Shown here: positions 12,378-44,742 of the stretch, piece by piece
Numbering within the stretch: the first letter of the stretch is position 1
Layout: every line of letters begins with the position of its first letter
Assembly: GCA_963575745.1 (NCBI GenBank)
Contig: CAUYUJ010000147.1
Coordinates: forward strand, 62,001-117,623
Origin: Prorocentrum cordatum
Taxonomy: Eukaryota
Length of the DNA: 55,623 nucleotides
Direction of reading: 5' to 3'
Translations under genes and position numbers: made by a program
Notes under the pieces: model-generated
Told to the model about the DNA's origin: nothing
What the model saw: only the letters and a program-made list of their open reading frames with translations
The model's database searches: none

Positions 12378-13679
12378 CTAGTTTGTCAATTCCATTTCGA
12401 ACTTGCTTGCCAAACACTTCCAGCCAACATCAAGGCACGCCCGCCTCAGAATGACACACGTGCTCGTGCACAGGGGCACCTTCGCCTGCACGGCGTCCCT
12501 GTACAGTTCGACGGCGTATTCAACACGCTGGATCATGCTGCATGCATAAATTGCATGGTGGTAGGCGAACCGGTCGGGCTCGAAGGACTGCTCCCGCATC
12601 GAATCGAAGATGGTAATGGCTTTCTCGAACTGGTCACTGCACGCGTAGACCCTGATCATCGTGCCATAAGATCTTGCATTGGGAGCCACTGCGTGGTCCG
12701 CCATCTTCGTGAACAACTCGTGGGCCGCGTCGTGCATACCATGCTGGATTAAAACACCCAACACTACATTGTACGCCGACTGCCGGAGCTGAATCCCTGA
12801 GCGCTCCATCTCGTTGCTCAACTCCAAGACGAATGCTGGATTGGAACGCTCGTGGGCCACAACGATAGAACGATATACCTGATCGCTAAGGGTGACGCCT
12901 GCGCTCTTCATTTTCACGAACCATTCCACGACATTCTCCGGAGGCTGATACTTCCACGACGCCAGCAATCGATTCTGAAGAGTAGGCGACGGGTGGACTC
13001 CATGAGCCCAGACTAGATCAAGAACCCGCAGTCCGTCCATCTAAATGCGCTTGTCATCGAGAGTATCAACGACGAGCTTGAAGAAATTGTTTGATAGGGC
13101 CTTGTGAATGAGGTTTGCACCAGGAACGGTCCCCTTATTCAACATCTGATCGAACAACATCACAGCTGCGTCTCCGTGACCAAGTCTGACGGAGGAATGC
13201 ATCACTTCCAACACTTCTGGAAGTTCGTGAGTCACGCCCTCTCTCTGCGCGCGCTCGACGATGTACACGTCAGACTTCGATCGTTGTGCTTTGAGGCGGC
13301 AATGAGTATTGCGTCGTTTCCTATGCGACGCGCGTTCCTTGACGGAGACTGCGCAACAAGCTTCGCACCTACTGTCGAACATCGCCTTGTCGATCAACGA
13401 CGTTGTAGTGGTCAACTGATTCACGTTGGTGATCTTATCCGTGTTCTTCGTATTGCGTGGATCGAGGAAGAAGCCGAGAACGCAGAGCGATAGCAAGAAC
13501 GTGTCGATACCGATCTGGAGACTTGTTCCTCCAAAACTGCTGGACGTGGCAGTGAAAACGGGACGTAACGCGTAGAAGGCCGCGCAGAGCGAGGCGACCC
13601 CCATAGTAAGACTGTGGGCGGCACGCCCCTCGGAGAAGTGCCGATAGGTCTGCTGCGCCGTCGCAATATACATTGGCAT
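12378..13679 (-). pseudogene. Intronless pentatricopeptide-repeat (PPR) protein retrocopy with one in-frame TAG (13041-13043)
   Basis: PPR motifs AYNVVLGVLIQHGMHDAAHELFTKMADHAVAPNA, SYGTMIRVYACSDQFEKAITIFDSMREQSFEPDR and AYHHAIYACSMIQRVEYAVELYRD. ORFs 13041..13985 and 12378..13040 abut in the same frame. ATG at 13679 lies ~100 nt downstream of the SL stack. Hydrophobic N-terminal segments. Confidence 0.88.
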
Positions 13680-13779
13680 CTGACACACTGGGAAAATAAA
13701 TGCAATAACGATTAAGGATGTGTGCTTAAACCTTGGATATGATGTTGCCCACGGTCGGGCCAATCCAAACTGGGGCCGG

Positions 13780-13831
13780 CTTAAGCCACAATTGCTGAAA
13801 CGAAAATGGCTTGAGCCAGCATGGCTACGGA
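13780..13831 (-). other. Genomic DinoSL plus two tandem relict SLs
   Basis: Minus strand reads tccgtagccatgctggctcaag (20/22 to DCCGTAGCCATTTTGGCTCAAG), then ccattttcgtttcag (11/15) and caattgtggcttaag (12/15 to CCATTTTGGCTCAAG). Confidence 0.93.
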
Positions 13832-14260
13832 TGGGTCCAGGAGGCGATGTTGGGTGCTCCCGAGGGGGGGCGTAATTCCACCAGCCCTCTGGGCGTCGGT
13901 GGTTTAGGGCGTTTCTTCCACCCCTCCCTCTTCCACGCCGGGGTGGGCCTGGGCGGGAGGGGCGGGGAAGTGTCAGGGCGTCCAAAACGGCCTCGGCGAG
14001 AAGCCGAACTCATTGATGTTACTGGGGTTTTGGCCCCGTTTTGGCCTCCTGAGGGGGGGGCGCTAATTTGTGCCCCCCCTCCGGTGGTCGATCTCCTCCA
14101 AAATGGCTCCAAGAAACGCCCAGGAGGCCCCAAGAGTGCCCCAAAATGGCCCCAAGAGGCCCCCAAGAGGCCCCCAGGAGGTCCCCAAGAGGATCCCAAG
14201 CGGTCCAAAGTGGCCCCCCCGAGGCACCCAAGACGCCGAAAAGCCCCTCAGGACGGCCCT
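13832..14260 (+). repeat. Second, rearranged copy of the 10330-11230 dispersed repeat
   Basis: Shares the gggtccaggaggcgat and ccaccagccctctgggcgtcggtggtttaggg blocks and the ccaaga minisatellite. Abuts the SL directly. Confidence 0.75.
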
Positions 14261-16290: not shown

Positions 16291-18550
16291 CCGGGGAGGT
16301 CCCACTGGATGTTGTTGATTCCTGTTTTGTGCAACTGCTGCCCCGTGTTGGGGTCTTCGGGCTCTGGCGTGGCCGTGTGTGGCCGTGTGTCCTGGCCGCA
16401 AGTTTCCACAGCAAAGGCCTCGCTGCCCTGGCTGGGGGACTCGCGATCTGCTCGCGACGGCTCCAGCTGCGCGCCTGGCAGGACTTTGCGGGGAAATGCA
16501 GGCCTCATGGTTGGCCGCCAGGCTGGCGCGGAGCGGCGGGAACTGCTCGCAAATGGGAGGCCTGTGCCAGGATGGGAATTGCGCCCATGTCCTGCAGTAA
16601 GAGTGCCTTGCGCAGTACTGGGCGCCCGCGTATCCCGAGTCGTCTGCCTCAGCCTCAGCCTGGGGATGCCCCCCTTGCGCGGCGCGGGGGGAACATGGCG
16701 CAACCTGTGGGTTGCGCCCATGTCCTGCTGCGAGAGTGCCCTGCGCAGTAGGAGGAGGAGGAGGAGGAGAGGAGGAGGCGCAGCCGATAGCCGCAAGATC
16801 TGGCAAATTGAAGGAGGAGAGGGGATCGGCGATGCATCCTCGCGCGGGGCAAGTCGCGTCGTCTTAGATGGCTCTTTCCTCGTAAGCGTGCGTCCGCGTA
16901 TAGTGGCCCGAGTCGTCTGCCACAGCCTCAGCCTGGGGATGCTCTCCGAGCACGGTGCGGGGGGAACATGGCGCAACCGCGTCGTTGTCGGCGTCTACGT
17001 CGTCGACGTCGGCGTCGGCGTCGTCGGCGTCGGAGTCGGCGTCGTCGTCGGCTTCGGCGTCGGCCTCGGCTTCGCCTGTGCCGAGATATGGGTTGTGCCC
17101 ATGTCCTGCTGTGAGAGTGCCCTGCGCATGAGCCGTGCACTGGTCGCTGTATGTTGCCTCCTCTCGAGGGTCGTTCGTATGAGCCGCGCCCTGGAAACTG
17201 CATCCCGGAGGACAGCTGGCGCGCTGGTTGCACTGTGGGGGGAATTCCGCGGCTTCCGCAGCCTCCGCCGTCTCCGCCGCGACTTCCCCCTCCATTCCTC
17301 TGCCTTGCTGGTGCAGAGGGCTGCTGACGGACAGTTTGACCAGAGGGGGGTACTCCGCGGCTTCCGCCGCCTCCGCCGTCTCCGCAGTGACTTCCCGTTC
17401 CTTCCTCTGGCCTGCTGGCGCAGCTGAAGGGGGGGGGGGCGTTCGCGTGAGCTGTGCGCTGGTCACTGCAGGCTACCTCCTCTCGATTCCCCTCCGGGAC
17501 ACCGTCGTCTGACCACGATGTGGGGGGTGGCATCGTGGCTTCTGACTCAAACGCGCGTCGATCCCCATCTGGGACGTTGTCTTCAGTCGACGAAACGGCG
17601 GGGGAAGGCAAGCTGCCGCTGCTGCTGCTGCAGCAGCAGCTGCGGCAGCTGTGGCGCAGCCGATCACTGCCAGGGGGCGGAGGGCGAATCGGCGCGAAGA
17701 GGTTTCTCTCGACGAGCCGGCGTATGGCTTCGTTGTCCTGCGTCTGGGTGGCAGCTCTGTGGTCTCCCTGCAGCGTGTGCGCGCGTGGCTCCCCCAGAGG
17801 ACTGCTGGCGGGCTGATTATCCTGAAGGGGATGTTCCGCGGCTTCCGCAGCCTCCGCCGTAACTTCCCACTCCTTCCTCTGGCCTGTTGGCCCTGCTGGA
17901 GGGGGGGGGTCGTTAGTGTGAGCTGACCGCTGGTCACTATGGGCCACCTCCTCTCGATTCCCCACTGGGACATCGTCGTCTGTCCACGATGCGGGGGGTG
18001 GTATCGTGCCCGCAGCCTCAACCGCCTCTCGATTCCCCTCTGTGACGTCTTCGTTTGTCGACGAAACAGGGGGTGGCACGCTGCCGCTGCTGCTGCCGCT
18101 ATGTCCAGATGCGTCGTCGTGCGTGGCAGGGCCCTCTGTCACGGCGCGGGGGGAACTGCTCACTATTGGGGGGCCAGTGCCAGGATGGGGGTTGTGCCCA
18201 TGCCCTGCTGTGAGAGCGCCCTGCGCAGTGCTGGGCGTTCGCGCATAGTGGCCCGAGTCGTCTGCCTCAGCCTCAGCCTGGGGGTGCTCTCCTTGCGCGG
18301 CGCGGGGGGAACATGGCACAACCTGTGGGTCGTGCCTGTGTCCTGCTGCGAGAGTGCCCTGCGCAGTGGGGGGAGGGGGGGGGGAGGGGGCGCAGCCGAT
18401 AGCCGCAAGATCTGGCAAATTGAAGGAGGAGGGGGAGGGGTCGGCGATGCGTGCTTGCATGGGGGAGGTCGAGTCATCTGGGTCGCGGTCGTGGTCGTCT
18501 TCGGAGCCGTCGTGGTCGCGGTCGTCGTCGACGTGGTTGCGAACGTGGAC

Positions 18551-19798
18551 CTCGGCGAGGCCGAGCGGGCCCCAGTGTCCGACGGGCGCCTGCGCGCTCA
18601 GCTCGCTCTCGAGGGCGCGGAGCGGCGAGTCAGTGTAGGTCACCCCGTCGCCCCAGGCGGAGCCCGTGTGGTTGTCCTGGAAGAACATCCCGATGGTGGC
18701 CGTCCTGGTCAGGCGGCCTTCGGCCAGCTCCGCGGTCAGGGGCCGCCTGTTCTTCTCAGGGTCCTCTATGCCGCCCCCCTTGAACCCGCCGAGGGCCCCG
18801 AAGTGCGACTTGCCGAAGCCCGCCTCGGTTCTGCTGAGCTTGCCCGGGGGGCCCCTTGGGCCCTGACTGGCCGAGTGGCGCTCGAGGGGGCCGTAGAACA
18901 GGAACATTCGCACCCAGTCGGCACCAGACGCCTTGCCCGGAGCGCTCAGGCCCGTCGGAAGACTCGCAAGGGCAGGTCCCTCGGGGACGACACCTCCCGG
19001 CCACAGGGGAAAATCCTGTACGATGTACCCTATGGCGGCCCACGTGGCGACGCGGCCGTGCTTGACCTCGGCGCCCCTCCTCCTGCGGAGGACGTCCGCG
19101 CCGACGTCCTTCGCAAGGCCGGGCGGGCCCCAGTGGCCGACGGGCGGCTGCAGGTCCCATTCGCTCTCGAAGGCGCGCAGCGGCGAATCCGTGCAGGTCG
19201 CCCAGTCGCCCCAGGCGGAGCCCACGAGGCCGTCCTGGAGGAACGCCCCGACGATGGCCATCGCGCCCAGGCGGCCGTTGGCCAGCTCCGCGTTCAGGGG
19301 CCGCTTCATCTTCTCAGGGTCCGCGGCGTCGTCCCCCTTGTGCACCTTGAGGGCCCTGAAGTACGACATTCCGATGCCCACCTCGGAACCGCTGGGGCCT
19401 GGGTTGCACCCGCATGGAACCGACTCGCAGTAGAGGCTATGCGCCACGATCTGCAGCCAGCCTGGTCCTGGCACCGTGGGGAGGGCGGCCAGACCGTTCG
19501 GGGTGTCCTCGAGTTCCCTCTCGAAAGACAGGGAGATCTCGCCGGGAGACTTGCCGGCGGCCTCTGGCGTGTTGTAGCTCATCATGGCGAGCGTGCTCAC
19601 CCGCCCATCCTTGCTCTCTGCCTCGCGGCGTCTCTTGAAGGCCGCGGCGTCGACAGCCTTCGCGAGGTCGGCAGGGTCCCAGAGGCGCACTGGCGCCTGC
19701 GCGTCCAGCTCGTTCCCGATGGAGCGCAGAGGGGGGCCCGTGCGCGGCGCCCAGCCGCCCCGCGTGCTGCTCGAGAGGCCATCCTGGTAGAACATCCG
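18551..19798 (-). pseudogene. Decayed chlorophyll a/c light-harvesting complex (LHC/FCP-type) polyprotein: two full units plus flanking partial units
   Basis: ELDAQAPVRLWDPA...FKRRREAESKDGRVS; LNAELANGRLGAMAIVG; EVKHGRVATWAAIGY. Spacer DSPLRA|FE is typical of dinoflagellate LHC polyproteins. Intronless, with many conserved residues altered. Confidence 0.92.
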
Positions 19799-20757
19799 GG
19801 AATAGGTGGGATCAGCAGCCAGCTGTATACCGGCTCCACCACGCACGCTGTCTGCAACGGCGCTGGGCGGGGGCAACTCCGGCGAGACTCCTCCACGAGC
19901 ATTGTCGTCCAGCGTGTGGGTCAGAGGAGCCCCCGTGCGCGGGGCGCTCTCGTGCCCCATGCGTCTGGTGGGGCCGGGCCTGTGGCCACGCAGAGCAGTA
20001 GAAAGACAGTCGGGCACAGGAAAGAATGAAGAAGAAGCCGTAGAGGTCGAAGTGATAGGTAGCTCATCAACCACAAAAGAGTGGGTAGAACCGTGCGAGC
20101 CATAGAGATGGTGTTCCCCGTGGGACACTGGAGACTGCCACATCTGCTCCTCCATGGGAATCGGCGAGAAAGAGCCCGCCAGGGAGCCAGCCGCGGAGCG
20201 TTGTCCCCCAGTCGATCGCGAACGACCCTGCGAGGATGAGAACAAGACGCCGTGCGAACGCGCCGCCTCACCAAGGCCAGTGCCCCCCGTACTTGCTGTT
20301 ACCGTAGCTGTCAACTCCCGTGAGACGCTGACTATATCCATCTCAGATGCGCCATACACTGGCCCCTGCCCAACATGTGGTTGTAATAGCTGACGACGAC
20401 CATCAGATGAAGAACGTGAAGGTGCAGACAATGAAGGTGAAGAAAAGGAGCCGCCAACGGCCGAATCAAGAGGCTGAGCTGGTGCACACTCGATGCCTCC
20501 AGCGGCCCCCGTGTCCAGACGATGGGGTTGCCCAATGTGCTCTCCTCATTCCTGCGCACCGATCGGGTTGATGGAGTGCGTCCCGCCCGAGAGCAAGGCG
20601 CACGAGTGAACGGCCCACCCGACGAAATACGCCGTCCACTCGCACTTCGTGACTTCTGCGCGAAGAGGTGGCACCATAGTCGCTGGTGAAGAAAAGCGCG
20701 TGAACCATCTGTAAGTAACCAGCGACTCCCGGTGCGGACTTGGACCGGGCACCGTGC

Positions 20758-21119
20758 ACCGTGGTAGAACATCCCGATGGTCGCCATCATCGCCAGCCTT
20801 CCGTTCGCGGACTCGGCGTTCAGCTTGTCATCGAACTTCACCTCGAGCGTCGGGGAGATCTCGCCCGGAGACTTGCCAGCGACCTCTGGCGTGATATATC
20901 CCTTCGTAGCGGGCGCGCTCACGCGCGCATCCTTGCTCTCTGTCTCGCGGCGCCTCCTGAGGGCCGCGGCGTCACCGTCCTGCGTGAAGCCTGCGGGGTC
21001 CCAGACGCCTACTGGCGCTTGCGCCCCCACCTTGCTCTCGAAGGCGCGCGGCGGGGAGTCCGCGCACAGCGCCCAATCGCCCGCCCGCTGCTCGAGAGGC
21101 TGTCCTGGTGGAACATCCG
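20758..21119 (-). pseudogene. Second LHC polyprotein fragment with internal deletion and frameshift
   Basis: RMFHQD../GDWALCADSPPRAFESKVGAQAPVGVWDPAGF...RRRRETESKDARVS...FDD|KLNAESANGRLAMMATIGMFY. The middle helix region is missing. Confidence 0.9.
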
Positions 21120-21398
21120 GTAGTAGGTGGGTGTTGTACTCCTTGAGTGGGGCAGATCTAATGCCGAGAAACGTGTGGAACATGTCAAAACTGTTCCATA
21201 GCTAATCCCATTGGAACCCACCTGAGATCGAATCTGCGCAAAAAAATCCCCCCCTCAGACCAGGGGGCGACCGGGCAGGTGGCCATGCACGGCTTGCCAA
21301 CTGCATGCTGTCGAGCTTGCCCCCTTCTAGGGAGGCCTGCGCCACCTCCCAGCTTCGCTTAGACGACAGGCAGCGGGGCGCCCCGCCAAGCCCGCCAT

Positions 21399-24049: not shown

Positions 24050-27000
24050 TATCACCTACTGTACCAATGTTGGGAGGTCGTTGCTAAACACTCGGTCGAT
24101 CTGTCAACATGACCTAAATTGAAATAGAACGTGTCTACAATGTAAAGCACGCTCTGAATGTGTATGTACCCCAGAGACTGCATTTGAGGAAGATGATAAT
24201 GTACGTGTGCAGCCCAACACTGACAAGATAATGTGTACCCGATATATTGTGTGCAATACCACGTACCACGTAAGTGCATATCATATACTGTACCAACAGT
24301 TCCCAGAACTATTGACGTAGTGTTGCGTAGTGCTGCGTAGTGCTGCGTAGTGCCGCGGTAGTTCCGTAGTGCTGCGTAGTGCTGCGTATTGCTGTGTAGT
24401 GTTGCGTAGTGCTGCGTAGTGCTGCGTAGTGCTGCTTCTGGCGCTGGTGTTGCTGGTGATGGTGCGTTGGTGCTACTGGCGCTGGTGCTGCTGGTCGCTG
24501 GTGGAGTCTGCACAAACTGGTGGGTTTGTGTACTTTGTTATGGTGGGCGGTCTGCGCAAGCTGATGGAAACAGAGTCTGCACAAACTGGTGGAAAACCGT
24601 TGTTAGGGGGGGAGAGGGAGGGTGGTTCGGGGCATAAAGGTGAGGCGTGCCAGAGGTTGGTGTCTGTGGAGAGCCCGGCGGCGATCCGGCGGCGTGCGCA
24701 AGTGACGCTGTGGCGGCCCGCCGCGTGGGGGACAAAAAACCATGTGCCACAGTGCGGACATGAGTGCGTATTGCTCTTGACTTCTTTGTTTAGCAATCTG
24801 ACTCGGTCGATCCACTGGTCGTATGGCATCTGCTCGCAGGCCCGGCAGTGTTTAGTGCATTTGGAAGTGCCAGAACTGCCCGGGAAGGTTCTGTGGCAGA
24901 AATGGCATTCGTGAGCATTCCTGTCGGGCGGCAGGTCGTGGAGCGGCAGGTCAACTATGGTCATCTGGCGGGTTTGTTCCCGGAAGGGCTTGGTCGCGCG
25001 GTATGCCCGTGCAGCTTGGTGCCATAGTGCTGGCCAGGCGTCGGAAGGTGTCTCGGCTGCAGGGGGAGGAGGAGGAGGAGGGGCGGCTTCGGCCGCAGAC
25101 GCAGGGCGTCGTAGTGGTCCTGCTGCTGCCGGGCGACGGAGAATCCCTGCCCTGGACTGGAAGCAGGCGCCGGGCGATCGGCAGGTGCTGCTGCAGCCTC
25201 CGGGGCAGGCTGAGGATCGGGAGCTGGGGCGCCCGGGGCCGCTGCGGGGCGGCGCAGGGCTTGGGGGGCGGAAAGATACGGATACGTGTTGTCCCCGGAC
25301 CTCTCTTGGGGTGCGTTCTGACTAGAATTTCGAGGCGAATCCAGCGGTGACAACGAGGATTCCCCAACTGGACCAGGAAAGGCCGAAAACGAAGGGGGAC
25401 AACACGCATTCGTATCTTTTTCTCCCCCGAAGGGCAGAGGCAACTGCGGGGCGGTGCATCGTGCCGGCCATGGTGGGAGCCAGCGGCGCCGAAGCGGAGG
25501 CAACGGGGGCTGTGTCATCTCCGGTAGGTGGCGGAGGAGGCGGCGCGCCGGGCGCGGCAGCGGGTCGGCGGAGCAGGGCTCGGCGTGTTCGAAGCTCGCG
25601 TTCTCCAGCGGGAAGAGCGGCACACGTCCCAGCATGTTTTTTCAAAGAGCTGAGCGTCCCTGTGTAGACTTGGCAGTGTGGGCACATGTGCCGGCCTTGG
25701 TCGGTCGGGGTGGCCCCGTCGGCTGCGGCAACTCGGGCCTGCGCGGCGGCAGCCCGCCGTTCCGCCAAGCCGCCAGGGGAGTGTTTCTGTTGCCAGGTCT
25801 GCGCATGCTCATTTTGTCGTTGGGTCTTCAGCCATGTCTTGATCAGGTTCCGCCAGCGTGCGCCTGAAGCTTCCCGAGCCACGTCCGTCCAACGGGTGGG
25901 CCAGTCTTTGGGAGGAATGTCCGTCAGAGTGAGGAGTTCGGTAATGAGCCGCCACCAGTATTGCCGTGTCGTACATCTTCCTCGGGCGCCATGGACCGTG
26001 GCTTCAGGGCGGAGCCAGGGCCAGAGCATTTGACGCTCGACTCGGTCGGCGGGTAATCGAGCCAGGTGGCCAATGTACTGCATTGCACGGAATTCAATTT
26101 CCCTGCGAACCGGGCGGAATCCGCAGCGGTGTCTCACATCCGCCATGGCCTGCTGATCGTCGTGCATTGTGAGTCGTCGTTGTCGGCAAAGACCCATGCA
26201 GACCCGGGTCAAGAATACCTGATACTGCTTGTATTCGTTGCTCGTGAAAGACCGACGCTCGCAAGCGTAGAGTAGACAACTCTGGATGACTGCTCGGGCA
26301 ACCTGTCCAGTGCGCTTGGGGGACAGGCCGAGTCGCGGGAGCTGGCGGGCGAGTTTGCTCCAGAGCTTGGCAGCGGCGGCGAGACGGCGCTGCGTGTCGA
26401 TCTCCTGTCCTCCATCCCATTGAAGCCATCCACCAAAAAACCGAACACTGTCGGTGAATAGCTGTGCAGGATCGTCGTCTGGAGTACCGGGGCGTGGTGG
26501 TAGGGGTCGAACCCCAGGCTTCAGTCGACACGTTTTCCCCGGGTGCAGTTCCTCCCTCCAAGTACGTAGGGAATGCGCCATATTAGATTCCACCGTGGGG
26601 CGTTGAGATTCTCGGCATATTCCCGTGGTGTCGTCCGCAAGCAGGAGGCAGAGGAGCCGAATCAGTTGTACCTGGCGGCCCATCTTCCGTTCCGTACGCC
26701 TCGATGGCTCTCCATGTATGCGATTGTTGAAGGAACGGCCTTCCCAGTTCGACGCCGTGGTGGCCTCGGGCCTGCTCCCCCAAGAGGAACTCGCGGATGG
26801 CGAAATTGTGGTAGAGGTTGAAACATGCCAGTGAGGACCCGCAGCCTTCTCTGAAGCCGATGGCTAACGTAAAAAGATCCGATAGCCCTTCACGAATACG
26901 GATTTGGTAACTCGTATAGTCGTGTAGACCAGAAAGTACCCGGAGCAGGCGAGGGGGAACGCCGAGTTTGTGGAAAAGGCGCCACGCTAAGTGGCGTTGC

Positions 27001-28200
27001 GCCCTTGGGTATGCCTTCGCAACGTCCCAGAATACCAGTACTAGGTGGTCCCACTCGGGCTGGGATGCTGTGTCAATTTCCGTACACATCTCGACCAGGA
27101 CCGTAACGACGAAGAGCGGATCCACACAGCGACGTCCCGGGCGGAACCCCCATTGAAAATCGTGTAATACGTGCTGACGCACGGACCATTGAGAAAGGCG
27201 TGACCCAACTATTCTGGATAGTAGGCGCGACAGAATGCTGAGCAGAACGATTATCCTGTAATTGGTCAATTCTTTGCGATTGCCCTTGTGTTTGTACAGA
27301 AAGATACCGATACCTCTTTTCACAAGGTCGTGCCAGTGGTTTGGGTGGCAGTCCCACATCTGCCAAATCAAGTGCATGACGCAGAAGATCGTGCGCGGGC
27401 CTGCCGCGCGTAGCATCCCGGCTGTGACCTCGTCCGCGCCTGCCGAGTTGTCCCGGAGGTGGTAGATAGCAGAGGTCACTTCGTCGGCCGTGGGGAGGGC
27501 GCCAAGCGTGTCATCAACCTGTCGTACGGGCACAGAGTCCAGGACAGCTCCGGGGATCTTGATTTTGGTGCCGCTCACGTTGATCGCGTGCTCGCGCAAG
27601 TCCTTCAGTCGAAACCGTCCCCGTCCACTGCTGTCCTCCCCGTGCATCACAATGCCCAGCCATGGTAATAGAGCGTAGAAGGCACCCATGTCCCGATTGT
27701 GCATCGCCTCTTCCACCTGCGTGATCGTGTGCTTGACGTGTCGCCAGCGGGCCCTCGTGCGGACACGGTTCAGGGTCTTCAGCGCCGTCCTGTGGGCCAG
27801 CCGAGCCCGGCCATCCGCCGGCGTGCCGGCCGTTCGGCGGACCTCTTCCCAGGCAGTCTGCAGGCTGGAGCGGAGGACGTCGATGTGGATCATGTCGTCG
27901 TCGGTGTGCGGCATGGTGATCTGGCGCGGGCGTTTGCGGCCAACAATGCGTTCCAGTTCCTCCACCAGAATGCTGGAGAGCTCACCCCAGTCGTACGGAA
28001 TGTCTTGTGGATCGGGAAAATCCCCCTGCATAAACCAAGGATCCCCTTCTCCATCTTCCCGGGGAGGGCGTGGTCCAGGACCGCCGGATTTGCTGGTGCG
28101 GCGTCGTCGGGGTGCGGTCTCCGTGGTGGGAGTGGGGCGGACGCTGTCCAGGGCGTCGCGGTGCGGGTCGAGGGCGCGCCAGAGACGAAGGTGGCCTGCT
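24050..28200 (-). mobile_element. 5'-truncated RTE-like LINE: ORF2 reverse transcriptase with several C-terminal zinc fingers, plus 3' UTR
   Basis: RT motifs SAGADEV, NYRIIVLLS, FQWGFRPGR, FWDVAKAY, GFREGC, LLADD (after a frameshift at ~26680) and VRFFGGWL. Fingers CPHC..KKHAGTC, CHFC..KHCRAC and CPHC..RHSVTC. Confidence 0.92.
25261..25430. mobile_element. 170-bp MITE with 36-bp TIRs and 5-bp target duplication (AGGGC), inserted in LINE ORF2
   Basis: Left ttggggggcggaaagatacggatacgtgttgtcccc versus reverse complement of right tcgggggagaaaaagatacgaatgcgtgttgtcccc. agggc at 25256-25260 and 25431-25435. Removing it restores ...VASA-LRRPAAAPGAP. Confidence 0.88.
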
Positions 28201-28212
28201 GCGCCCTTGTTC

Positions 28213-29716
28213 CGCATGCGAACTGCGCCACTGGGGCCTTCGGTGGAGCTCCCTATGGGGCCACGAGCGCTGCCCTGGGCGGGGGGGCCGCGTGCGAACT
28301 GCGCCACTGGGACCTTCGGTGGAGCTCCCTATGGGGCCACGAAACGCTGTCCTGGGTGGGACAACCGTATGCGACCTGCGCCACTGGGGCCTTCGGTGGA
28401 GCCCCCTATGGGGCCACGAAGCGCTGCCCTGGGTGGGGGAACCGCAAGCGACCATCCCCACTGGGGCCTTTCGGTGGAGCTCCCTATAGGGCCACGAAGC
28501 GCTTTCCTGGCTGGGGGACCCGCATGCGAACACCCCCGCTGGGGCCTTCGGTGGAGCTCCCCATGGGGCCACGAAACGCTGCCCTGGGTGGGGGACCCGC
28601 ATGCGAACGCCGCCAGTGGGGCCTTCGGTGGAGCTCCCTGCGACCTGCGCCACTGGGGCCTTCGGTGGAGCCCCCTATGGGGCCACGAAGCGCTGCCCTG
28701 GGTGGGGGAACCGCAAGCGACCATCCCCACTTAGCGCTGCCCTGGATGGGGGAACCGCATGCGAGAGCAGCCACTGGGGCCTTCGGTGGAGCTCCGTATG
28801 GGGCCGCGAAGCGCTGCCCTGGGTGGGGGAGCCGCTTTCGGTGGAGCTCCCCATGAGGCCACCCAGCGCTGTCCTGGGTGGGGGAACCAACCGCATGCGA
28901 ACACCCCCAGTGGGGCCTTCGGTGGAGCTCCCTATGGGGCCACGAAGCGATGCCCTGGGTGGGGTAACCGCATGCGACCCCCCCCCCGCTGGGGCCATCG
29001 GTGGAGCTCCCTATGGATCCACGAAGCGCTGCCCTGGGTGGGGGAACCGCATGCGAACGCGCCCACTGGGGCCTTCGGTGGAGCTCCCTATAGGGCCACG
29101 AAACGCTGCCCTGGGCGGGGGAACCGCATGCGATCTCTCCCCCCCCCCCGCTGGTGCCATCAGCGGAGCTCACATTAGTATGGGGCCACGAAACGCCGCC
29201 CTGGGTGGGGGACCCGCATGCGAACGCCGCCAGTGGGGCCTTCGGTGGAGCCCCCCATGGGGCCACGAAGCGCTGCCCTGGGTGGGGGAACTGCATGCGA
29301 ACACCCCCGCAGGGGCCTTCGGTGGAGCTCCCCATGGGGCCACGAAGCGCTGCCCTGGGTGGGGGAACCGCATGCGACCCCCCCCCCCCTGCTGGGGCCA
29401 TCGGCGGAGCTCCCTATGGGGCCACGAAGCGTTTCCCTGGGTGGGGGGCCCGCATGCGACCACCCCCACTGGGGCCATCGGCGGAGCTCCCTATGCCATG
29501 GATGGGGGAACCGCATGCGAACGCCCCCACTGGGGCCTTCGGTGGAGTTCCCAATGGGGCTACGAAGCGTGTGAGAGGCGCGCTGGGAGCAGAGGCAAGG
29601 AGGGGGGGAGGGAAGAGGCGGGAAGAGGGTGGGGAGGGGGAGGAGGAGGAAGGAAGGTGGGGCGCGGGGCGCTGTCTCTTCAAAACGAGGACCCAACGCC
29701 ACTGGACGGTTGGGAA
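28213..29716 (+). repeat. 77-bp hairpin satellite array with terminal module
   Basis: Unit actggggccttcggtggagctccctatggggccacgaagcgctgccctgggtgggggaaccgcatgcgaactgcgcc. Ends in cgtgtgagagg, a purine tract, then ctcttcaaaacgaggacccaac..gttgggaa. Confidence 0.95.
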
Positions 29717-29915
29717 CAAGAGGATGGCGGAACAAACCACACCGCTGGGGACTGCCCCGCGACTGCCTTGGCGCTCCGCGCGCAAGGGCGGCATCCCGCG
29801 CACCCCCTCGTGGCGCCAGGCCAACATGAGGCCGACATGAAGTCATCCAGCTTGAGAAATTATCCTGGCGAAGGGCCCGACCATACGCAATTGTTCGTAA
29901 CGCGTTGTGGGTGCC

Positions 29916-30472
29916 GCTTTCGGCGGGGCTCCCTATGGGGCCACGAAGCGCTGCCTTGGTGGGGGAACCGCAAGCGAACTGCGCCACTGGGGCGGGCCTT
30001 CGGTGGAGCTCTCTGTGGGGCCACGAAACGCTGCCCTGGGCGGGGGGGCCGCATGCGAACTGCGCCACTGGGGCCTTCGGTGGAGCTCCCTAGGGGGCCA
30101 CGAAGCCCTGGCCTGGGCTGGGGGCCCCCATGCAAACTGCGCCACGGGGGCCTTCGGTGGAGCTTCCTATGGGGCCACGAAGCGCTGCCCTGGGTGGGGG
30201 AACCGCATGCGAACTGCGCCACTGGGACCTTCGGTGGTGATTTCTATGGGGCAACGAAACGCTGCTCTGGGTGGGGGAACCGTGAGCGAACTGCGCCACT
30301 GGGGCCTTCGGTGTAACTCCCTATGGGGCCACGAAGCGCTGCCCTGGGTGGGGGAACCGCAAGCGAACTGCGCCACTGGGGCCTTCGGTGGAGCTCTCTA
30401 TGGGGCCACGAAGCGCTGCCCTCTGCGGGGGGACCGCATGCGAACTGCGCCGCAGGGGGCCTTCGGTGGAGC
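29916..30472 (+). repeat. 77-bp satellite array (~7 units)
   Basis: The 77-bp period is visible in the ORF track (ORF ends at 30090, 30167, 30244, 30321, 30398). Confidence 0.95.
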
Positions 30473-30899
30473 TGCCCGCCCCCCCCCCAGCCCTTCGCCC
30501 TCTCCACAAGGAAGGCGGGGAGGGGCCGCCTCAAACGGCGGGGTGGTGTCCGGCTGTCGCCCAACCTCAGCGCGATGCGCGGCCGCGGACAGCACTCGTG
30601 TGCGAGCGATGCCACGCGCCAACCTCGAGGCGCCAGCATGCGAAGGGGGGGCCCCTTCTTGATGCGCCTAAGTTTCCCCGTCCATTGCGAATGGTAGGAA
30701 GGCGCTCTCCAAAAAGTTGGCGGCCGTCAGTGGTGGCCGCGCGACCTCGTCTTACGCAGAAATGCAAATCGCGCGAGTCCCAGCGGGCCAGGGCGCGGGG
30801 CCCGCGAAGGAAAGCCCCGCGAACCTCCACGCGGCCCCGAACCTGAAGGGCAGCGTTTCTGGGAAAAGCAGCCAGGACGTTCAAGCGCGCAACTGGCCT

Positions 30900-39759: not shown

Positions 39760-42700
39760 GTTTGCAATGCAGGCGGGGGCGTCACGGGCAAGACGATTCA
39801 GTGCAAGAATCGTGAGATCTAGTTGGCGGGGGCTGAGGAAGGGTGTCGACTACGGCGAGGCGATCACGCGGGGCGGAGCGGGTGGGGAGACAGGGAGGGC
39901 AGAGAGGGCGGCCTCAGACTTCCTCTGGAATCTGGGAGATCCGGATGACGGCATAACGGGGATCGGCGGCATCGAGTTGTAGTTCGAGATGAGGTGGAAA
40001 ATGGGCGAGCTGAGGTAGACGGGATTCCTCTTCCAACCGAGGGCCGTATCACCAGTATCTTCGCATTCGGGTGCGGTTTGGGCTTGAAAGAAAGCGGCGG
40101 ACGTGACGGCAGTGCGACGCGTGGCTACTCGAGCAGCATAGGGGGGCCCCAGTTGTTGAGATTATGCAAGATGCCTTGGGGGATAGAAATGCTGGGGGCG
40201 TTCGTCGCGCGCCGTTGAGCTTTGCGAACGGCCGCGAACGCTTGCTTGGTGGGCGTGCGAAGCTGCGCGACGCGCGAGAGGACAAAGAAGGACAGGAGGT
40301 TGAAGCAACCAAGGGACTTGCAAAGCCCCGGCCAGAGGCTCTGTACATCGTGGGCTCTGGAAGCGCACTTGGTCGGGGACCGGGGGGGGCGGCCAGGAAA
40401 CCCCGTCTTTCCCAAGGGTAATCCCAAGACGCTTTCCACGAACCTCGAAGGGCAGCTCATCGGGGCAGACGCCGATGGCGCCCGTGAGGAACTTGCAGCG
40501 CGAAGCGCTGAGTGGCCCAAGCGGGCCAAGATGGGACTTCCTCGCATGGGCGCGAAGTCCCGCGGCAGAACCTGCAACCTTCCAGGCCGGCAGAAGGTCT
40601 TAAACATCTGGAAGACGTCGGCAGAGGCCGCGCCGGCGTCGACGGCCAACGTTGTCAACTAGCTCAAATCTCGGGGCACCCTGGTCAGCGCGTGCCCGAG
40701 CGGGAAATAATGCCGGCGAGGGGGCGTCCTTGTTTGATCCCATGGGGGGCCAGGAACGAGTGCCCCTGGGGGCCTCAGAAGTTGACATCGATCGCGACAT
40801 TGGCGCACAGGGCCTGGATGCACCGCAGCGTGAAAGACTGGGGCCCCATGCATGCCAGGACCCAACATATCATGAGGAGTGCGGCAGGCCAGGGAAGGCC
40901 AGCCGAACGTCGCAATAGAGCATGCCAGCGCGTTCGTGACCAAGCTGAGCACGCCGCGAGGGCAGCGCGAGTGTCGAGGTCGATGCTGTTTCTGTTCATG
41001 TAACGGCCTGGGATACAGCCCGTCTGGTTGGCTAGGACTGTTTGGGGTGGGGATCCGAGAGAGCGTTTTGTTGATGGCGAGCGAGACGAGCTTGTTATCG
41101 GCGTTGGGCTTGCGTGTCATCTGTGCGTTCGCGTCATCTGGGTCATTGCCCATGGCGTTGAAAAACGGCCACGCCCCGGTTGAATACCTCGGGGTGGCCG
41201 TCCTGCTCGAGCAGGACGGAGTAGAGACGGCGCCGAGAGTCGACGACTGCTACCCCCCCTCTTGCGCAACAAGCGCACGGGGCGCCGTCGGGCCCAACGC
41301 GCGAACCCCCAATCCGAGAGACCAACTTTTCAAATTCGGGGCGCCCCTGTTTCCAAAACGCCAAGTCGGGGCAGGGCTGGGCGAAATCTCTAAGCGGTAG
41401 TCGGCCCTCGTGAGAACCTGGGCTGCCGCGGTGCACTTTGCCCCAGAGGGGGGGGAGATACGAAGCGACCTGCTCTGGCTCGGCGATGGCCTTGCCAGCC
41501 GGGTCGGAGCTTCTTGCGCGTGCTGGTCCGAGACGGGCTGTTGCCCAACGCCCTTCAAGTGCTGCTGGATGTGCTCGAGCTTCAGCGCGTTGCGGCGGGG
41601 GCGAAAACCTCGCGCGCCCAACCGCGCGCCAGGGCGCGGGCGCAACAACTTGGCGAGGGGCGGGCAGGCGAGCGGGGCCTCGTCGATAGGCCAGCGCTGG
41701 CCGCGCAGGGCGCCGCGAAGATAGGACAAGGACCATCTTTTCCTCGAGGGACTTGTTGGCGTGCTCAACGCTGCATTGGAGAACGTTCTTACTGGCCTGA
41801 ACGGGGGCATCTATCATCTGGGAGCGTTAGACGAAGGGGTCGGTGTCGAGTGGGCCGACGATATCTATGAGCTGCTGCGCGTGCCAGGAGGGGACCCTGA
41901 AACCCATCTTGCCACCGGGAGATAAAGCGAGACATGCCGGAGCGTGGCCTGGGAGGTAGCCGACTTTGGAGATCGGGGCAAGGGCGAGGGACTTGGGGTG
42001 GAATTCGAGGAGAACGGGGCCGCGTATGTTGGTGCATATGACATCGATGGGACTCATACTCGCGACCTTCTGGGCGCCCTCAATCTCCTGCGCGGCGCGG
42101 CGCGTCGAGAAAGCCTGCTCCGCCTCGCAGACCGCCGACGTCCAGCGAGGAAAAGACGGCGGCGCCGTTGCTCGACTAATTCACCGCCCCACTGGCGCGG
42201 AATGAGCCTCCCCCCAGGCTCGGAAAGTTGAAGTCCCCGAGCACGGAGCCAGTGCTTGAAGTGAGCTCGCAACGCAGGGCGGAGACATATGGGAACGCCT
42301 CCGCCAACCTTATCTCCGAAGAAGGACCCACTCCCCCAAGAGTCGATGACCTCTGAATATTCAGAAGCGAACTTTTGGCCTCCTGGATGAGCGCGATTTG
42401 GCACTTCTGAATGTATGATAGTAGATGTGATAACAGATTTTTGATGGTATCCAGGCACGACGTGAGTCCTCCAAGGAGTGGTCGAGCGTTCCAAGACACA
42501 AGACTGAAATGGGTGATGCATCTGTATGGAGACTGACTGGGCCCGGGAGCCAGGGATGGGTCGGAAGCGCTGGGGGCCAGCCGCGAACGGAAGCCTGGAA
42601 GTTTCACGAGACGAAGAGGACCCAGACGAGGTGGAAGCCCCAGAAGACGAGCCGAACGTACAGGAAATACGATCATGCGTGCACGAGCGGTATGGGATCT

Positions 42701-43799
42701 TCATGCCTGGCGAAGCCGACAGTGCAATCTCATCTATGCTGATCAGCATGTGAAACCCCTAGCTGCTCCTCGCGGCGCCGATGATGGCAGCGGCCTGCTC
42801 GGGGGAAATGCCAATTTGCACAACTTCGATGAAACAAATCTCGAACTGCCCGAAATCGCCCTCCTTCATGTGGAGAGCTCGTGGATGACGTCGCTGGCTG
42901 CGATGGACAGGATGCCGCGGAAGCCGCTGACGCCAAAATTGTACTGGAGGTCGTTTCATGAGCCGACTTGCCGAAGACGCTGACTGACTGCTTGCCACTC
43001 ATTGCCGAAGACCTGGTTCTTCTGGCGGACAGAAGTTGGGGGCGTCTTTCCTGCAGCGGACCATACATTGGTGTTGGCGGCGGAGTCGACCCAGATGATG
43101 CCGCACGCGCGGCCGTGGTCGACGAACGCGGTGGCGTCGAAAAATCACTCGAACGAGATCGAGTAGCTCTTGGCGGGGTTGTGCGCCTCGATGGTGATGC
43201 GCATTGCGCGGATATGGGATGGCAAGAGCGTGAAGAGGTTGCGGCTGTGAGCTTCCATGGTCGTTGCCAGCACGGGGCGAATGAGGCCGCCGATCCAGAC
43301 CTTGCACGTGTCGTGCTCCTCCCTTGGCCGCGTCTGAACACTGCTGGGTGGGGCGGAAAGCCTGCGCTTCGTCGCGGGAGGCCCATCACACGAGCTGGAA
43401 ATTGATGCTGCCGAAGATCCTGCCGTCGACTCGACTGCTGCCATGCGCTTCTCCATGCCTGTGCGGGGAGGACTGCCAACGCGCCAGCTTCGAAGGACAG
43501 ACCCATGTTACTCTTAAGCTGCGCGAGCCTGGAGTTGATCTTCTGCATGGCTGAGTCCTGGGCTGAGTGTCTCACGTACTGCCCGGAGGCTCGGGGGCGC
43601 GGTCTCGATGCTGGACAAGCGACTCGTGATGCCGCCAAGTTGCTCGAGTGTCTGCTGGATGCCGTCGCCGACCGCCGCCATGGCAGGAGACTGGTGAGAA
43701 AAGAGGAAATGCCCGCCCGAGCTTGACAGTGGACGTCGCTCTTTCAAGAAGAGCTGCCGCGCTCAAATGGGGTCTGTCCTCACGTTGAGCCAAAATGGC
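39760..43799 (-). mobile_element. Full-length decayed LINE (ORF1 + endonuclease-RT ORF2) beginning with an SL core
   Basis: ORF1 ~43681-42759 (coiled-coil-like start, then KVWIGGLIRP). ORF2: LVSWNAR..IALIQE, LGDFNF, VGPDGAP, NADNKLV, GIKQGRPLAG (~40720-40745). The 3' boundary is approximate. Confidence 0.85.
43785..43799 (-). other. DinoSL core (nt 7-21)
   Basis: Minus strand gccattttggctcaa, 15/15 to the SL. It lies just downstream of a ~53-nt (CCT)n tract and ~105 nt upstream of the ORF1 ATG. Confidence 0.8.
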
Positions 43800-44526
43800 A
43801 GAGGAGGAGGAGGAGGAGGAGGAGGAGGAGGAGGAGGAGGAGGAGGAGGAGGAGAGTCAGCATGATCACGGGGCGGAGGCGGGGAAAAAGAGGACGGCAA
43901 CGGCGAGACATGAATCGGGTCCAAATCTGTTGCCCTCGCGGCGACAGCGGAATTCCGAGAGACGGAGGCCAAGTACCGGTCCTGAACCGAGGCCACCGCT
44001 GCGCAGCGGGAGCGCCACTTTAAGGACCAAGGACGTTTCCTTTGGGTAGCATCTCCCTAAGCCAGGTTCATAGAGCAGTGTACAACCAACATGACAACGA
44101 ATGCAATGAATAAAACGAATGCGCACTCAGGACTATGAACCAAGAAAGCCTCGTGCGATGACGCTTTGACGCTGTGCCGCACCAGCATGCTTTGTCGACC
44201 GAAGACGCTCCGAGGCAATCTCCTGTCAGTCTCTTGGCATCCGATGCGCAAGGTCAACAAGGCACGGAAAGGGGCGGGTCAACGGCAGGAGAGCGGGCCC
44301 TCGTCCTCGCCCTGCTTGAGGAGGGCCAGTGGAGACCACCGCGGTGAGACAACGGCGGCCCAGATCCGTTCAAAATCGGTCCCCGGAGCCCTTCCGATGC
44401 CCAGAAGCACGAGTTTTCCCGGCTGCGTCCCTTGTCTCGCCTGGCCTTCCTCCGACCGTAGTCTCCTCTCATCCTCCTCCTGGATCTGTCCTGTCCCCAC
44501 TTCCCCCCAGAGATACCCAAATTAGA

Positions 44527-44742
44527 GGCCTCCCAGATGGGGTCCGAGTAGAATAGGGTCGGAGGATCGCGCCGCATCGCCGATGCATCGGTGATGCATC
44601 GGCGGCTTTATCGGCGACGTCGGCCATGCATCGGCGACGTCGACCTGGAGAAATCGGGCTCCACATTGATCCGCATCGCCGATGCATCGGCGATGCGACG
44701 CGAACCTCCAACCCCATCTACTCGGACCCCATCCAAGAAGCC
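44527..44742. mobile_element. Foldback/MITE element with ~65-bp inverted arms
   Basis: gatggggtccgagtaga..ggagg.tcgcg.cgcatcgccgatgcatcgg is mirrored by ccgatgcatcggcgatgcgacgcgaacctcc..tctactcggaccccatc. Internal gatgcatc palindromes. Confidence 0.8.

Follow-up and report, generated by a model that had tools for sequence, protein, structure and literature searches.

Dinoflagellate genomes reportedly contain recycled processed cDNAs that are tagged by a relict of the dinoflagellate spliced leader (DinoSL), as Slamovits and Keeling are said to have described in 2008. A physical association between a non-LTR element and spliced leader (SL) sequence is also a feature of SLACS, CZAR, CRE and NeSL, elements that insert into SL RNA genes and have a REL-type endonuclease. 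Here we describe a locus in 55,623 nucleotides of Prorocentrum cordatum DNA (GenBank assembly GCA_963575745.1, contig CAUYUJ010000147.1, positions 62,001 to 117,623 of the forward strand; this whole stretch is referred to as the window, and all coordinates are those of the window). At this locus a DinoSL relict stands on the minus strand ahead of what appears to be a decayed long interspersed nuclear element (LINE). We think it probable, with a good deal of doubt remaining, that a LINE mRNA carrying a trans-spliced SL was copied back into the genome here, and that this retrocopy is now dead, with frameshifts and an internal deletion, its SL being a passive relict.

DinoSL has the sequence DCCGTAGCCATTTTGGCTCAAG (PMC7245778; also PMC5585692), and the relict form AGCCATTTTGGCTCAAG has been quoted (PMC6616646). 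Dinoflagellate retrogenes with relict DinoSLs have been described (PMC5585692, PMC6050394, PMC3942190; for these papers, and for PMC5832876, PMC1874656 and PMC8190864 cited below, all statements refer to the parts of the text available to us). They share with the present locus a 5'-truncated SL on the coding strand, at most 500 nt upstream of an open reading frame (ORF), and they are read as retroposed trans-spliced mRNAs. In contrast to those retrogenes, the RNA copied here seems to have encoded an endonuclease (EN) and a reverse transcriptase (RT); in addition, the AG of the relict is lost, a microsatellite abuts it and there is no poly(A) remnant. In the published retrogene model the AG of the relict SL is reused as a trans-splice acceptor and a TTTT/TTTG motif acts as the core promoter (PMC5585692). 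The same source reports an enrichment of 'RNA-dependent DNA replication' among the relict-DinoSL genes of two Symbiodiniaceae. The RT gene models of these species resemble our locus in having SL relicts upstream of RT genes, but they are treated as retrogenes in the available part of that paper, which does not describe the structure of an element (PMC5585692).

In another phylum and with another SL, the SL-containing retrotransposons of Schistosoma mansoni, which like our locus have an SL embedded in genomic retrotransposon copies, have been read as trans-spliced and retro-transcribed elements, although their authors also weigh assembly artefacts (PMC5832876). L1Tc and ingi of trypanosomatids are likewise LINEs that live amid polycistronic transcription and universal SL trans-splicing, but they represent the opposite solution, with the internal promoter Pr77 and unspliced transcripts (PMC1874656, PMC8190864). 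Retrocopies with a DinoSL relict are therefore of a kind already known, whereas a LINE-like member with such a relict is not described in the literature that we found. (Note that our search for DinoSL at LINE 5' ends, which returned no description, covered the literature incompletely, and that the supplements of PMC5585692 may list cases.)

Results

A DinoSL relict ahead of a LINE-like body

Read along the minus strand, the locus comprises the following parts.

43801..43854, minus strand: perfect (CTC)18, or (CCT)n, microsatellite (TRF: period 3, 18.0 copies, 100% matches)
43785..43799, minus strand: relict DinoSL core GCCATTTTGGCTCAA, exact at 15 of 15 bases to SL positions 7-21
43682..43784, minus strand: leader of 103 nt, from the SL relict to the first ATG, read from the sequence
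42760..43681, minus strand: putative ORF1 remnant, placed by position and by eye; MAAVGDG... from 43681, with a stop after 55 codons in the three-frame translation
41923..42520, minus strand: apparent APE-type endonuclease remnant, with VSWNARPL at 42499, IALIQEAK at 42397, GDFNF at 42238 and an SDH-like PGHAPACLAL at 41952
40400..41340, minus strand: apparent reverse-transcriptase remnant in three frames, with GPDGAP at 41295, NKLVSLAINK at 41096, QTGCIPGR at 41026, CDVRLAF at 40914, GIKQGRPL / SPALF at 40741-40705 and GKRLGITLG at 40437
39760..40399, minus strand: sequence beyond the apparent RT remnant, in which the element has no defined 3' end

An earlier note on this DNA had reported an SL core beside a (CCT)n tract on the minus strand, about 105 nt ahead of the start of ORF1. 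That description holds up. CT alone separates the SL core, an exact 15-mer, from the (CTC)18 array found by TRF, which is 54 nt long (43854-43801, minus) and is preceded by GATCATGCTGACT. The leader opens with C followed by GTGAGGACAG, and the ATG at 43681, 103 nt downstream, begins a frame of 55 codons. The relict starts at G7 of the SL; SL positions 1-6 are absent, position 6 reads T for A and position 22 reads C for G, and over the DinoSL 21-mer 17 of 21 bases are identical. A relict that extends from G7 on is the usual one. As in the known retrogenes, it is the 3' part of DinoSL that is found, on the coding strand and well within 500 nt upstream of an ORF, and the cut lies at or near the AG of SL positions 6-7. 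The acceptor itself is not kept, the A of this AG being T, so that the earlier proposal that the relict serves as a trans-splice acceptor is not supported by this copy, in which the dinucleotide reads TG.

The window contains two SL matches with at most two mismatches, where 0.09 are expected, and none of 100 shuffles gave two. (At a looser threshold, 11 sites in the window, 10 of them on the minus strand, keep at least 14 of the 21 SL bases; since this total is near the shuffle mean of 8.55, the two best sites alone are clearly real.) By our own estimate, based on two strong relicts in about 111 kb of strand, an unrelated relict would be expected within 150 nt upstream and in the right orientation in about 0.3% of cases. 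The relict also lies about 1.26 kb before the start of the EN remnant, a distance compatible with a leader and an ORF1 of some 300-380 codons. Because the relict shares its strand with the LINE-like body and stands 103 nt before the first ATG of that body, an SL-trans-spliced RNA template is the simplest reading and a likely one. To this extent the earlier inference that the LINE RNA was SL-capped is supported.

Probable remnants of an endonuclease and a reverse transcriptase

The earlier note had spoken of a full-length LINE with ORF1 followed by an EN-RT ORF2. What stands of this is the order: apparent remnants of EN and RT are recognisable where they would be expected. The body appears to be a decayed LINE and is not an intact full-length one, with no intact ORF, a shortened EN and no EN or RT match in Pfam. 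The three minus-strand frames of 39760-43682 contain 14, 25 and 16 stops; the longest open stretch is 316 codons, and the longest ORF that begins with ATG has 272 aa and a composition that looks out of frame.

In the Atlas feature search the EN piece was placed with Exo_endo_phos and endonuclease-reverse-transcriptase clusters at 0.92-0.91 (recognition 2826), and the ten best family-bearing matches belonged, 10 of 10, to one clan. With hhalign, SLVSWNARPL...IALIQEAK fell on the WN...E N-terminus of EN profile A1, at the expected position and with a weak E of 0.068. From 'IALIQEAK' to 'GDFNF' there are about 52 codons, compared to about 130 in the reference proteins, which suggests an internal deletion of about 80 codons that removed the middle of the domain. 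The candidate RT piece is spread over three frames, with a frameshift inside the GIKQGRPL / SPALF motif, and its N-terminal piece returned nothing with hhalign.

Four EN+RT proteins found via a second LINE of the window (see below) served as references (P0001-P0004). Conserved blocks of these proteins were picked by conservation alone, and the best colinear chain of blocks was sought across all frames, the references setting the limits of spacing. A chain of 20 EN-RT blocks gave the locus a score of 168.2, a value reached by none of 150 shuffles (140.4 +/- 7.6, maximum 162.7) and by none of 58 real segments of the window (135.3 +/- 9.5, maximum 154.7); the second LINE (LINE2), used as a positive control, scored 262.8. 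The EN blocks scored 19.2 and 16.3. The blocks of the chain are the classical ones, namely GDFN, an SDH-like block, GPDG, Q-GC-PGR, D-RLAF and GIKQG then SPALF. Taken together, the motif chain, the Atlas match and the hhalign placement speak for a LINE that encoded an APE-type endonuclease and a reverse transcriptase and has since decayed heavily.

The assignment of ORF1 is putative; it is based on where the frame lies and on an RRM-like 'KVWIGGL' noticed by eye (43303-43283, in the ORF1 frame and beyond its stops). A word search for relatives of ORF1 found none, and the Atlas feature search with it found nothing (0.75).

The microsatellite beside the relict

Perfect arrays of the CCT/AGG type of at least 18 nt occur 12 times in the window, on both strands and with (CTC)18 included, and make up 0.62% of it. 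As the chance that a random site falls within 2 nt of an array end is about 0.0013 (~0.13%), some link between the microsatellite and the SL relict is probable. The flanks shared by the CCT arrays of the window consist of generic pyrimidine-rich context only, with no repeat family. The first AG dinucleotides after the pyrimidine tract, at 43780 and 43775, lie inside the leader, 19-24 nt further downstream than the AG site of the relict. That a perfect array lies beside a heavily mutated element suggests ongoing slippage rather than old inherited sequence.

The earlier note had also suggested that the (CCT)n tract could be a preferred target. Such a preference is not supported for this copy. 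The 3' side of the element lacks a CCT array, showing just a degenerate CT-rich stretch, and thus this copy does not have the same microsatellite at both flanks, as a microsatellite-targeting LINE would. The other SL-tagged retrocopy of the window, which lies at a PPR locus described below, has no such tract upstream. The sole direct repeat that could be taken for a target-site duplication (TSD) is at chance level, as detailed in the Discussion.

For comparison, scans for the full 21-nt DinoSL yielded 126 metagenome loci and 119 loci from a viral collection (245 loci, 1.75 Mb). In only 1 of 249 SL contexts from these fetched loci do pyrimidines make up 90% or more of the 25 nt upstream. (In L116:221-321, on a metagenome contig of 340 nt, a full DinoSL directly adjoins a (CT)n microsatellite; none of the other SL contexts among the 249 offers a clear parallel.)

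SL-bearing loci elsewhere and the remainder of the window

None of the 245 loci has an EN or RT match downstream of the SL. One contig, represented by two overlapping loci, has a weak RT match (E 0.0012) that lies upstream of its SLs, and no relatives of the EN+RT alignment were found in viral contigs. Many of these loci (L001-L245) are in bins labelled as giant-virus metagenome-assembled genomes, and such bins therefore seem to contain dinoflagellate nuclear DNA.

The window has a G+C content of about 0.62, and judged by its sequence its DNA is of dinoflagellate type. At 13832-13780 (minus), upstream of ORFs with PPR repeats (12381-14009, minus), lies a complete DinoSL of 22 nt with two mismatches (TT to GC), and two degenerate relicts come immediately after it. 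By this arrangement the PPR locus reads as a classical multiply recycled dinoflagellate retrogene, and with its SL and two relicts it indicates that SL-tagged retroposition operates in this genome. A light-harvesting polyprotein gene at 16931-21201 (minus) is recognisable by long ORFs in which the chlorophyll a/b-binding domain recurs (3.5e-35, 3e-15). The element has the orientation of these recognised host genes (the chlorophyll a/b-binding polyprotein and PPR), all of which are on the minus strand.

A second LINE (about 25300-28100, minus, abutting 28212-30473) is better preserved than the element described here and unrelated to it. It has an RVT_1 match (1.1e-10), is 33% identical to P0001/P0002 from about residue 389 and has a C2HC zinc-finger-like motif downstream. 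Because the identity starts only at about residue 389 and the endonuclease part is missing, this LINE is 5'-truncated; it runs into a 77-bp tandem array and has no SL relict. A repeat present in very many copies occupies 44423-44700 and contains palindromic 11-mers of the GCATCGGCGAT type. Its summed contig depth is 20401 (run X1, last bin) compared to 2-9 nearby, and many contigs end or branch there.

Discussion

The sequence of events that we favour is as follows. An LINE mRNA with the putative ORF1, an APE-type EN and an RT would have received DinoSL by trans-splicing, like other nuclear mRNAs. Reverse transcription of this SL-capped mRNA would have proceeded to about SL position 7, yielding a copy that starts with GCCATTTTGGCTCAA. 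The relict would then be a passive tag of the mRNA 5' end, as it is in dinoflagellate retrogenes, and the (CTC)18 array, a kind of microsatellite common in this genome, would be DNA of the flank or the junction. The master copies of the family, like host genes, may depend on read-through transcription and trans-splicing and not on a promoter of their own.

A number of results weigh against this account, beginning with the LINE identity of the body, which is statistically modest. Pfam searches with 21 stop-to-stop pieces gave 0 of 21 with an EN or RT match at E<=0.1, phmmer with the best EN piece gave 0 matches among 1.84 billion representatives, PDB searches with pieces of the element returned nothing relevant and a word search with the RT N-terminal piece gave 0 matches. 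When P0001-P0004 were compared with the locus by tblastn the best E was 0.37, and a hidden Markov model built from these four sequences had no positive-scoring match in it. In a frameshift-tolerant profile alignment, run with 5 parameter sets, the locus was not separable from its reverse, the other strand or shuffles. A shorter chain of 9 blocks scored 85.5, which 5 of 200 shuffles and 3 of 58 real segments of the window equalled or exceeded. The ends of the element are no clearer: there is no A-rich or poly(A) remnant (the best 12-nt window has only 6 A), and the one direct repeat is weak. It pairs CCCGCCTCCGCCC--CGTGATC at 43864..43881 (minus) with a partner at about 39882-39862, to which the CT-rich stretch of the 3' side contributes, and its local alignment score of 12 was also attained in 8 of 300 shuffles and in 5 of 85 real segments of the window. 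Thus a convincing TSD and a 3' tail, as expected of a LINE, were not found. As regards the relict, SL positions 1-6 are missing, 15 of 15 intact SL bases are mildly surprising in so decayed an element, and a passive tag does not explain the direct contact with a perfect microsatellite. Finally, we found no second copy in the window, where tblastx with the element gave only low-score, low-complexity matches, and no relatives of the element in the 245 SL-bearing loci, which come from other dinoflagellate-like contigs. Among the sequencing runs listed as containing the stretch there was no RNA run. One low-coverage DNA run matches 15% of the words at a depth of 2-9, which is about single-copy, with 3 short diverged pieces at 80-86% identity among those listed; it does not cover 43488-44235.

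The negative searches would all be accounted for if the body were not a LINE and the motif chain had arisen by chance from GC-rich sequence translated in three frames. The frameshift-tolerant alignment, no better than its controls, and the marginal 9-block test fit this idea as well. We consider it quite improbable, given that none of the 150 shuffles and none of the 58 real controls reached the 20-block score, that the Atlas result for Exo_endo_phos (recognition 2826) was obtained independently and that hhalign set the EN N-terminus at its expected place in the profile. Alternatively, the locus could be a coincidental composite, with an SL relict left by another retrocopy, or an orphan, upstream of a LINE fragment whose own 5' end is elsewhere. 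Dinoflagellate genomes are rich in SL relicts (PMC5585692), no relatives of ORF1 could be detected, and the first 1.2 kb are tied to the EN and RT remnants by position only. The shared strand, the distance of 103 nt to an ATG whose context is good, the fit of the distance to EN with a leader plus ORF1 and the estimated chance of about 0.3% make such a coincidence improbable in our view. An origin from SL genes themselves, by a LINE that targets SL RNA genes or by a template switch from LINE RNA to SL RNA, has in its favour that the SL core is followed by C and GTGAGG, which resembles a splice donor. Among the fetched loci, 39 of 259 distinct full-SL contexts continue with GT, and 30 of 38 distinct GT continuations carry the SL RNA intron signature GTA[AC]A..GGCT..TGC..GCAGGCCTTTTT; the continuation here, C GTGAGGACAGACCCCATTTGAGCG, lacks that signature by eye. 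The complete 22-nt exon with its intron is absent, since the relict lacks SL positions 1-6; the 3' side has neither a second SL part nor the rest of an SL gene, and Rfam gave no match. Unlike SLACS, CZAR, CRE and NeSL, the element has no SL gene context, and its endonuclease remnant appears to be APE-type and not REL-type. An SL RNA gene or SL RNA chimera is hence unlikely, and we give an origin of this sort very little credence.

The remaining alternative, which follows the earlier note, has in its favour the contact between array and relict, with its chance of about 0.0013 per site. Here the pyrimidine microsatellite and the relict SL would form a heritable 5' module of the LINE family, a portable trans-splice acceptor by which promoterless copies are cut from host read-through transcripts. 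The sense orientation of the element within a block of minus-strand genes fits read-through transcription, the pyrimidine tract followed by the AGs at 43780 and 43775 resembles a 3' splice site, the SL of L116 is also abutted by a (CT)n array, and the array would be part of the inserted DNA were the weak direct repeat taken as a TSD. That repeat is not significant, though (8/300 shuffles, 5/85 real controls), and the AG of the relict itself has become TG. Inheritance of a module would have to be argued from a single copy, with no second example; a perfect 54-nt array next to a heavily mutated element points to later slippage and not to ancient inheritance; and neither the PPR retrocopy of the window nor, with 1 exception in 249, the SL contexts elsewhere have such a tract. 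We regard a module of this kind as unlikely. The more far-reaching proposal, that there is a LINE lineage with a heritable module of microsatellite and relict SL, expressed by host read-through, whose machinery also makes the SL-tagged retrogenes, we likewise hold to be doubtful at best. Note that expression of promoterless copies by trans-splicing, were it to apply here, would be an extension of the known retrogene model to an element that possibly supplies the machinery, and not a new mechanism, because reuse of the relict AG has already been published for dinoflagellate retrogenes (PMC5585692).

The retrocopy of an SL-capped LINE mRNA that we favour bears on the origin of the SL-tagged retrogenes that abound in dinoflagellate genomes. 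Which reverse transcriptase makes them in dinoflagellates is stated to be unknown in the available parts of PMC5585692 and PMC6050394. One decayed copy cannot settle a link between LINEs and retrogenes, but it marks a family worth collecting. If a LINE copy does carry an SL relict, then LINE mRNAs enter the same pathway from trans-splicing to retroposition as other mRNAs, and LINE reverse transcription can reach the SL. LINEs would then be a plausible source of the retrogene machinery, and it would then have to be asked how LINEs come to be expressed in genomes that lack conventional promoters.

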